From Naegleria gruberi (lineage: Eukaryota), in the NCBI GenBank assembly GCA_000004985.1, contig GG739411.1: a stretch of 1,476 nt of DNA. One strand, written 5' to 3'. Positions within the stretch are counted from its first letter, which is position 1, and each line of letters starts with the position of its first letter. Of this stretch, positions 792 to 1,413 are shown piece by piece. Made by a program: the position numbers and the translations under genes. The notes beneath the pieces were generated by a model. That model did not search any database, was not told the DNA's origin, and saw only the letters and a list, made by a program, of their open reading frames with translations.

Positions 792-826
792 GATGAAAAT
801 CTGATAATAAATATGATGTTTATTAT

Positions 827-838
827 CTATTTAAATAG
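827..838. repeat. perfect 12-bp palindrome CTATTTAAATAG (TATA-like)
   Basis: ctatttaaatag is its own reverse complement and lies immediately upstream of the GTAC cluster. It is AT-only apart from its ends, so it is only moderately surprising in 70% AT DNA. Confidence 0.4.
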
Positions 839-840
839 TA

Positions 841-918
841 GTACTAAAAGACATGATTCAAGTTGGTGAAGTACATGTTGAGTTATGGTCCATGTACTTT
901 TTCAAAATTCACATGTAC
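841..918. promoter_or_regulatory. cluster of four GTAC-core motifs (palindromic CATGTAC three times, AGTACT once) with a 9-bp hairpin
   Basis: GTAC occurs at 841-844 (within agtactaaa), 871-874, 894-897 and 915-918. My manual scan found no other GTAC in the window. GTACATG lies at 871-877, CATGTAC at 891-897 and again at 912-918. An inverted repeat aagtacatg (869-877) pairs with catgtactt (891-899) across a 13-nt spacer. The assignment to a regulatory function is inference only. Confidence 0.35.
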
Positions 919-924
919 CTATCC

Positions 925-954
925 CTATCATAACTTGACCAAAATTGATAAGAT
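925..954 (+). repeat. dispersed direct repeat, copy B (TATCatAACTTGaccaAAATTGATAAGAT)
   Basis: See copy A. Copy B lies 161 bp downstream, the same spacing scale as the roughly 156-bp duplication at 1064/1220. Confidence 0.6.
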
Positions 955-1141
955 AAAGTTCTCCTACCTACTATTGACTATTCCGAACAATGCTACATTG
1001 ACAGTTTTCCAACTTATCCAGTAGATCCAGCGGTGATGATGAATTTAGTGAAAATTTTGACATTTCACCAAAATTACATTACTAAAAATTAATTTCCACA
1101 AATACTATTATTATATTGATGGAAAACAATAATGATGATGG

Positions 1142-1227
1142 TTGGTGAATGATCCGATGATGGAACACCAAATTGTGATTTTCCATCATGAAAAATAAAT
1201 TCCAATTTCATGATGATAATTCACCAA
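1142..1227. repeat. imperfect inverted repeat (foldback) with a nested perfect 9-bp hairpin
   Basis: The left arm at 1142-1165 is ttggtgaatgatccgatgatggaa. The reverse complement of the right arm at 1207-1227 is ttggtgaattatcatcatgaa. The first 9 of 9 bases match (TTGGTGAAT), then ATC matches, then ATGATGG aligns with TCATGAA with an indel. This gives about 19 of 24 matches. The nested perfect stem is atgatggaa (1157-1165) paired with ttccatcat (1181-1189), with a 15-nt loop caccaaattgtgatt. The flanking AATAAT (1128-1133) and ATTATT (1240-1245) extend the foldback to about 118 nt. Confidence 0.55.
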
Positions 1228-1248
1228 TAAAAATTACTATTATTACTA

Positions 1249-1256
1249 TTATATAG
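1249..1256 (+). promoter_or_regulatory. TATA-box-like motif TTATATAG
   Basis: A consensus-like TATATA(G) lies at 1250-1256, about 160 bp upstream of the CT-rich tract. A second weaker TATA-like TATTTTTAT lies at 1392-1400, about 15-20 bp upstream of the tract. The match is to the motif only, and TATA-like strings are frequent by chance in AT-rich DNA. Confidence 0.2.
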
Positions 1257-1315
1257 ATCATGTTGAGATGATGATGTGAAAGTTTGGTGGTTTCATGATG
1301 TAAAACCGCTCCGAG

Positions 1316-1341
1316 AATGGTCATGTCCATAGAGGACCATT
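1316..1341. other. short hairpin AATGGTC-N12-GACCATT inside the only GC-richer patch of the 3' half
   Basis: aatggtc (1316-1322) pairs with gaccatt (1335-1341), with a 12-nt loop atgtccatagag. The patch at 1303-1343 (aaccgctccgagaatggtcatgtccatagaggaccatttg) is noticeably GC-richer than its surroundings. A 7-bp stem alone is weak evidence. Confidence 0.25.
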
Positions 1342-1413
1342 TGTTGAATATTTTTTGATTCTTTTAACGCAATTTTCGAAATAAACGCACCTATTTTTAT
1401 TTTCAACACCTCA

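Follow-up and report, generated by a model that had tools for sequence, protein, structure and literature searches.

The stretch of DNA analysed here, hereafter the window, is 1476 nt long and has a GC content of 30%. CpG is strongly depleted (observed/expected ratio of 0.43), and TG/CA are over-represented. The longest stop-free stretch in any frame of the window spans 81 codons, no stop-codon reassignment yields long ORFs, and a Pfam search with all the stop-free translated segments gave no match. No match was found either when the window was compared with phages and plasmids by BLASTN. An exact 24-mer from the window was absent from the JGI metagenomes and from collections of viral contigs and prokaryotic genomes, and a degenerate 23-mer was absent from the latter two collections. 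A prokaryotic, phage or plasmid origin was rejected on the grounds of these failed matches and of the lack of any helpful stop reassignment. The window reads as non-coding DNA from a CpG-methylating, AT-rich eukaryote: the host is assigned to the eukaryotes because the DNA is non-coding, AT-rich and CpG-depleted, lacks phage or plasmid relatives and has k-mers that are absent from prokaryotic and viral collections.

Two features lie near the edges of the window, both on the minus strand. At 1411–1476, a lysine-rich frame (...QKKKKKQVKETNKQKKKAKKK) crosses the right edge into the window and ends with a TGA (1413..1411), with an AATAAA-like signal just downstream of the stop. This frame, which is short and of low complexity, may represent a gene's 3′ end. 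At 3–328, an ATG stands in good context (ATAATGGCT, 328), 12 codons come after it, then a GT donor-like site at 291, and a pyrimidine-rich cag acceptor-like site is found at position 3. It is speculative to read this feature as an adjacent gene's first exon and intron; a search with its 81-aa translation found nothing.

The segment of interest, 1020–1310, is a cluster of short repeated words. It contains 56 direct 7-mer matches compared with 13.1 ± 5.4 in dinucleotide shuffles, a figure that none of 300 shuffles reached, and 28 inverted matches compared with 12.5 ± 4.6 (reached by 1/300). The remaining 291-nt windows of the same sequence contain 4–18 direct matches. ATGATG/CATCAT occurs 9 times where 1.3 occurrences are expected, while TTGGTG/CACCAA and GGTGAA/TTCACC occur 5 and 3 times, respectively, with an expectation of 0.16 each. 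Word counts at 1–794 revealed no enrichment of ATGATG, TTGGTG or GGTGAA. The original prediction had proposed that this segment is more structured than random AT-rich DNA and that its short words recur on both strands; the excess of 7-mer repeats over the shuffles and the positions of individual words (Table 1) bear out both proposals.

A further claim was that two blocks, 1064–1140 and 1220–1276, align end to end with one indel and represent a duplication with an offset of about 156 bp. When the blocks were aligned with a single 20-nt gap, 28 of 57 positions matched (P = 0.028 for that pair alone). Alternative block pairs within the window scored 31–35, and the optimal gapped alignment of the two blocks required at least 6 gaps. 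The top gapped direct self-alignment across the window (1053–1196 against 1204–1306, score 54) was equalled in 11 of 100 shuffled windows. In a BLASTN self-comparison, the sole direct repeat was one of 19 nt (1100–1117 against 1232–1250, E = 0.27), and the top matches were inverted (1157–1189, 1175–1224 and 1142–1227). Tandem Repeats Finder (TRF) reported only 1233–1252, a 20-nt run of (ATTACTATT)x2.2 with a 9-nt unit, and 708–728. The duplication is thus unsupported, and what holds up is an internal direct repeat of ~20–25 nt, at an offset of 132–141, together with small hairpins.

Relatives of the segment were sought via spurious short ORFs of the window, which were looked up in public gene-call collections. 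An ORF of 40 codons at 1089–1211 (−) was already recorded for an ENA metagenome contig of 562 bp (assembly ERZ929261, run ERR1078381, project PRJEB11402; locus L001), and nine further ORFs of the window were not on record. When the translation of 1092–1220 (−), 43 residues long, was used in a full HMMER scan, two further short “proteins” were retrieved with 74% and 58% identity; they are located on two other ENA metagenome contigs: L002 (513 bp, ERZ12289979) and L003 (3528 bp, from the same sample as L001). At least two different samples are represented among the copies, and the four loci are alike in composition (26–31% GC; CpG observed/expected, 0.43–0.55). The sole JGI match to a degenerate two-block pattern, L004, was rejected as a member of the family because the pattern matched by chance: positions 1–740 of this contig (JGI24705J35276_12131827) hold a ACTACTATTACTACTGCC-like, ACT/ATT-rich minisatellite of ~700 nt with no relationship to the window.

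Table 1. Positions in the window of the repeat copy, its internal structures and its recurrent words.
Feature	Position	Strand	Basis or remark
Core of the repeat-family copy	814..1318	.	One colinear homology block with the reverse complement of L003 1415–1915
Stretch common to L002	989..1318	.	BLASTN
Stretch near-identical to L001, best conserved of the family in every pairwise comparison	1090..1296	.	
Right-hand extension	1297..1385	.	L001 ~73% to 1359, weak to ~1385; L002 weakly; absent from L003
Probable degraded left end	795..813	.	Pairwise alignment; equivalent to the left TIR-like motif of L003, TATTATTCGGAGTG, unrecognisable here
GCTCCGAGAAT, window version of the family right-end motif CACTCCGAAAAT	1308..1318	+	Alignment; the motif pairs with the left end in L003
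Internal direct repeat, copy 1 (ACAAATACTATTATTATATTGATG)	1098..1121	+	BLASTN; same place in L002 and L003
Internal direct repeat, copy 2 (AATTACTATTATTACTATTATATAGATCATG)	1232..1261	+	132–141 nt downstream of copy 1
(ATT)n/(GAT)n hairpin	1104..1142	+	Fold z = −4.2 (+) vs. −1.25 (−); consensus helix 2
Short hairpin TTGGTG(1142)...CACCAA(1166) enclosing CCGATGATG	1142..1171	+	Stem invariant in 4/4 copies; consensus helices 3–4
Hairpin CATCAT...ATGATG	1184..1215	+	Consensus helix 5
Imperfect palindrome of 86 nt, outer stem TTGGTGAAT/ATTCACCAA	1142..1227	.	Specific to the window/L001 lineage
TTCACCAA word	1064 and 1220		
TTGGTGAA word	1142		
TTGGTGG word	1284		

The extent of homology differs from locus to locus. 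L001 matches the window by BLASTN at 1090–1359 with 93% identity, made of two unequal parts: 2 differences in 207 nt at 1090–1296 (99%) and ~17 in 63 nt at 1297–1359 (73%). This abrupt change in divergence could reflect a conversion tract, a mosaic copy or constraint. L002 matches 989–1318 (331 nt, 84% identity, E = 1e-101), and its contig ends at the equivalent of 989. L003 matches 814–1318 (510 nt, 68% identity, E = 4.6e-47). Divergence from the window across copies is therefore 1%, 16% and 32%. Beyond the homology block, the flanks of the window, L001 and L003 are unrelated: on its right come the lysine-rich frame in the window, AT-rich DNA of another sequence in L001 and a decayed reverse-transcriptase (RT) fragment in L003. 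The flanks of the window and L003 hold no extra partial copies, and each of these loci has one copy. In total, four copies are known, two of them truncated by contig ends.

Single-copy status without related loci had been named in the original prediction as an outcome that would count against it. The segment does not have that status because L001, L002 and L003 were recovered, and their unrelated flanks indicate that the region belongs to a dispersed repeat family: the window and the three loci provide the multiple copies (two or more), at different sites and with unrelated flanks, that define an interspersed repeat. As read from the alignments, 1020–1310 makes up the right half of a single family member, the dispersed repeat being at least 505 bp long. 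The repeat unit is thus larger than first proposed, covering at least 814–1318 and probably extending over ~795–1385.

The word clustering travels with the repeat. ATGATG density is 16.9/kb in the element of the window and 13.6/kb in that of L003, compared with 1.3–3.6/kb in the flanks. Since both the word enrichment and the internal direct repeat occur in the other copies and not in their flanks, the clustering is not a local feature, and the word architecture is inherited. The internal direct repeat, with the pattern ACTATTATTA..TATAT.GAT.ATG, recurs at the same offset in L002 and L003, and its recurrence at the same place indicates that this short repeat is real and older than the spread of the family. 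Another exact direct repeat, the 13-nt sequence AAATTGATAAGAT, is found at 779–791 and 942–954, 163 nt apart, and its first occurrence lies at the probable left edge of the copy.

Several small hairpins are also present (Table 1). The (ATT)n/(GAT)n hairpin forms on the plus strand only because its stem needs G·U pairs. In the hairpin at 1184–1215, the pair 1187:1212 differs between copies: the window and L001 have C-G, L002 has G-C and L003 has U-A. In the palindrome at 1142–1227, the arms are ~68% complementary, the fold is branched with nested hairpins, and, according to the alignment, L002 and L003 do not preserve the outer stem. The left part of the copy harbors a strong small hairpin at 803–827 (GATAATAAATATGATGTTTATTATC, a 25-nt palindrome with E = 5e-4 and z = −3.8) and another at 869–899 (AAGTACATG...CATGTACTT, z = −2.8) that is partly conserved in L003. 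Conservation is uneven along the copy: in every pairwise comparison, 1086–1285 is kept at 76–95% and 814–1085 at 40–72%.

The family is non-coding, a conclusion that relies on the lack of codon-position bias in the substitutions between copies (11/10/11, 20/17/17 and 18/18/20) and on the absence of Pfam matches. The homology block (505–590 bp) has a largest ORF of 62 codons at most, and in this respect it is short (under ~800 bp) and non-coding as MITEs are. A coding exon in the conserved core was rejected for the same lack of bias and for the presence of stops within the shared frame. Homologous-protein searches with the 81-aa and 40-aa translations of the window and with the RT fragment of L003 found nothing, or the query itself only.

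TIR-like ends are seen in L003 only, where the stretch homologous to the window is bounded exactly, on either side, by a 22-nt inverted repeat (P = 0.006). These TIR-like ends are TTCGGAGTG/CACTCCGAA, the full inverted repeat being TATTATTCGGAGT-GTTGTTGAT against the complement of ATGAAGAACCACTCCGAAAATA. The right-hand end motif is present in all the copies. In the window, the terminal inverted repeat (TIR) test recognised no left partner for it, and the ends were not significantly complementary (P = 0.62). Homology continues past the putative right TIR by 40–170 nt, in weaker form, in the window, L001 and L002. A systematic scan of the window for TIRs accompanied by a target-site duplication (TSD) gave nothing convincing. 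No TSD was found in L003, whose flanks give at best a TA dinucleotide that is uninformative because the DNA is AT-rich.

Stowaway elements have the terminal consensus CTCCCTCCGT with a TA TSD, and Tourist elements have GGCCTTGTTCGG-like ends with a TAA TSD. Neither consensus gave a terminal match at two or fewer mismatches, and the sole match of this type was internal (10/12, 983–994 on the minus strand), unpaired and non-conserved. P and CACTA terminal consensus sequences gave no match. Resemblance to P-element TIRs (CATGATGAAA...) was rejected as made of isolated short words only, and the same verdict was reached upon reading the sequence for a budding-yeast point centromere (CDEI/CDEIII), a DnaA-box or iteron origin, a CRESS-virus nonanucleotide and a hammerhead CUGAUGA core. 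A Helitron was rejected because neither side has a CTRR end (none within 1300–1400 on the plus strand or 780–830 on the minus strand).

The original prediction had considered the relic of a MITE or foldback transposon as one option. The multi-copy status of the sequence favours a mobile, interspersed relic; the foldback part of the proposal fails at the level of the family. The imperfect palindrome at 1142–1227 and its nested hairpins do recall foldback elements and MITE-derived MIRNA hairpins. Unlike them, however, the palindrome has poorly complementary arms and a branched fold, and the repeat lacks the long terminal inverted arrays of foldback elements. The foldback architecture is not a feature of the family because the palindrome is unconserved in L002 and L003. 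A foldback element was accordingly rejected, as the best inverted self-alignment was also within the shuffle range and the ends of the block were not significantly complementary.

The nearest known systems are MITEs and other non-autonomous DNA transposons with subterminal motif arrays (for example, Ds-type hAT or CACTA derivatives). Similarities include a length of ~0.5 kb, AT-rich and non-coding sequence, dispersal in unrelated flanks, motifs in both orientations, hairpin potential and, in one copy (L003), a 22-nt terminal inverted repeat. On the other hand, no TSD is seen, the left TIR of the window is missing, three copies have homology reaching past the right TIR, the termini fit none of the consensus sequences tested (Stowaway, Tourist, P and CACTA), and the family has no known autonomous partner.

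The existence of related copies elsewhere admits explanations other than transposition of a DNA element. One, which we consider unlikely, is that the loci are low-copy segmental duplications, or paralogous intergenic segments subjected to gene conversion, in which larger blocks were duplicated without being mobile and their flanks were later rearranged. The abrupt fall in window–L001 identity at 1297 (99% to 73%) resembles a conversion tract, the passage of homology beyond the putative right TIR and the lack of a TSD fit this explanation, and only four copies were recovered from very large collections. Yet the flanks of the window and L003 are unrelated on both sides, homology stops at the inverted-repeat pair of L003, the graded divergences suggest repeated rounds of copying, and more than one sample is represented. 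Copying via RNA, as a SINE or as the 3′ tail of a LINE, seems quite unlikely to us. Its main attraction is the decayed non-LTR reverse-transcriptase fragment of L003 (1196–1390, plus strand; ...HPAQRGFRRLASTTDQL...; Pfam RVT_1, E = 0.14), which adjoins the repeat ~220 nt upstream and in the same orientation. However, neither end of any copy has a poly(A) or simple-repeat tail, and searches at all the loci detected no pol III A/B boxes, no A runs of 10 or more and no tRNA or tRNA-like head (ARAGORN). The features of the SINE/LINE tail class are thereby lacking. In addition, what lies upstream of the repeat in the window, L001 and L002 is non-coding DNA with no relation to the RT fragment, and the four copies share a common end position, which is not the pattern of 5′ truncation. 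The RT fragment is probably what is left of an adjacent LINE; it is missing from the other copies. Two more features were noticed around the L003 copy: a 56-nt palindrome at 1400–1455, after the RT fragment, with sub-threshold mir-9457 matches on both strands; and 300 nt adjoining the repeat (2130–2420, plus strand) that are enriched in CATCAT and TTCACC (13/kb) and not alignable to the family. The latter may be an older, decayed neighbouring copy. The remaining DNA-level alternative, a tandem duplication decayed in place, a microsatellite relic or a satellite-like array, was one of the original options and is now extremely unlikely. Runs of (ATG)2-3 and (ATT)n are indeed present besides the 9-nt tandem repeat, and short words are collinear between 1064–1140 and 1220–1276. 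Nevertheless, the same internal arrangement is found in copies elsewhere and must predate this locus, the long gapped self-alignment is within the shuffle range, and a satellite or tandem array was rejected because TRF found none and the window and L003 have one copy each.

A different kind of alternative is that the core at 1090–1296 (+) is a functional RNA, belonging to a structured non-coding RNA gene family or to a hairpin RNA locus borne by a transposon. We regard this possibility as decidedly unlikely, even if some observations speak for it. The core is the best conserved part in every pairwise comparison, its plus-strand fold has z = −3.4, and G·U pairs in many stems confer plus-strand specificity. 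RNAalifold predicts a plus-strand consensus in which 94% of 56 pairs are kept, with 5 compensatory pairs, and the covariation score is 0.122 compared with 0.069 in shuffles (1/500), although it was computed on the same four sequences, representing 3 lineages, that were used to derive the structure. Furthermore, the (AUU)n:(GAU)n helices are tolerant to slippage, ~60% of the pairing being left after a ±3 slide. The predicted consensus structure should hence be taken as a lead and not as evidence. Comparison with known RNAs argues against this alternative too. All the Rfam matches retrieved at E ≤ 10 were below the gathering thresholds and amount to noise, including weak C/D matches (sR20, E = 0.44; snoR1, E = 8) and the only miRNA match for the window (E = 7). 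Like box C/D snoRNA clusters, the plus strand has five RUGAUGA C-box-like words within 270 nt; unlike them, it has no C...D unit with a terminal stem. A canonical C/D snoRNA is excluded because neither strand of 1020–1320 contains a CUGA D/D′ box (no CTGA or TCAG). A MIRNA precursor was rejected because folding at minimum free energy gives branched structures (z = −3.1 and −2.2 for 1138–1231) and no single miRNA-like hairpin. Finally, motif scans detected no promoter elements. The narrower idea that a ~200-nt core (1090–1296, plus strand) is a selected, conserved structured RNA rather than neutral transposon debris is very unlikely in our judgement; such a core could represent either a family of non-coding RNA genes specific to the lineage or a functional RNA module on a mobile element. 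If true, this idea would explain the better conservation of the core, the compensatory changes in some of its stems and the drop in identity at 1297.

The explanation that we prefer, to which we give slightly better than an even chance, is that a MITE-like, non-autonomous DNA element has left an old copy of itself in the window, and that its motif-rich interior yields the word cluster. Segment 1020–1310 is the right-hand, best-conserved portion of one non-coding interspersed repeat copy, and GATGATG, TTGGTGAA/TTCACCAA and TTCATGATG are words inherited from the family sequence, placed in an internal direct repeat of ~25 nt and in several small hairpins. A few changes in the window/L001 lineage have sharpened the 86-nt palindrome. 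Transposition, as a non-autonomous MITE-like element, is the most likely way in which the family spread, with TTCGGAGTG...CACTCCGAA as putative short terminal inverted repeats. The motif-rich interior would then be the kind of subterminal motif array that is bound by transposases, and the window copy would be old and would have lost its left terminus. Both the mechanism of mobility and the class of element are what we infer. A simple history of neutral transposon decay does not predict the much better preservation of the core (1086–1285) or the step in L001 identity at 1297. Ectopic conversion between copies, or else constraint, could account for both.

Nothing in 1020–1310 falls outside the known kinds of sequence, and any wider interest is limited to the minority reading of a selected structured RNA core. 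The value of the finding lies in annotation: the stretch is to be masked or labeled as an interspersed repeat and not as a regulatory module, a snoRNA cluster or a local duplication. Should the family turn out to be abundant in the source genome, the repeat library of that genome would gain one unclassified element through the family consensus.
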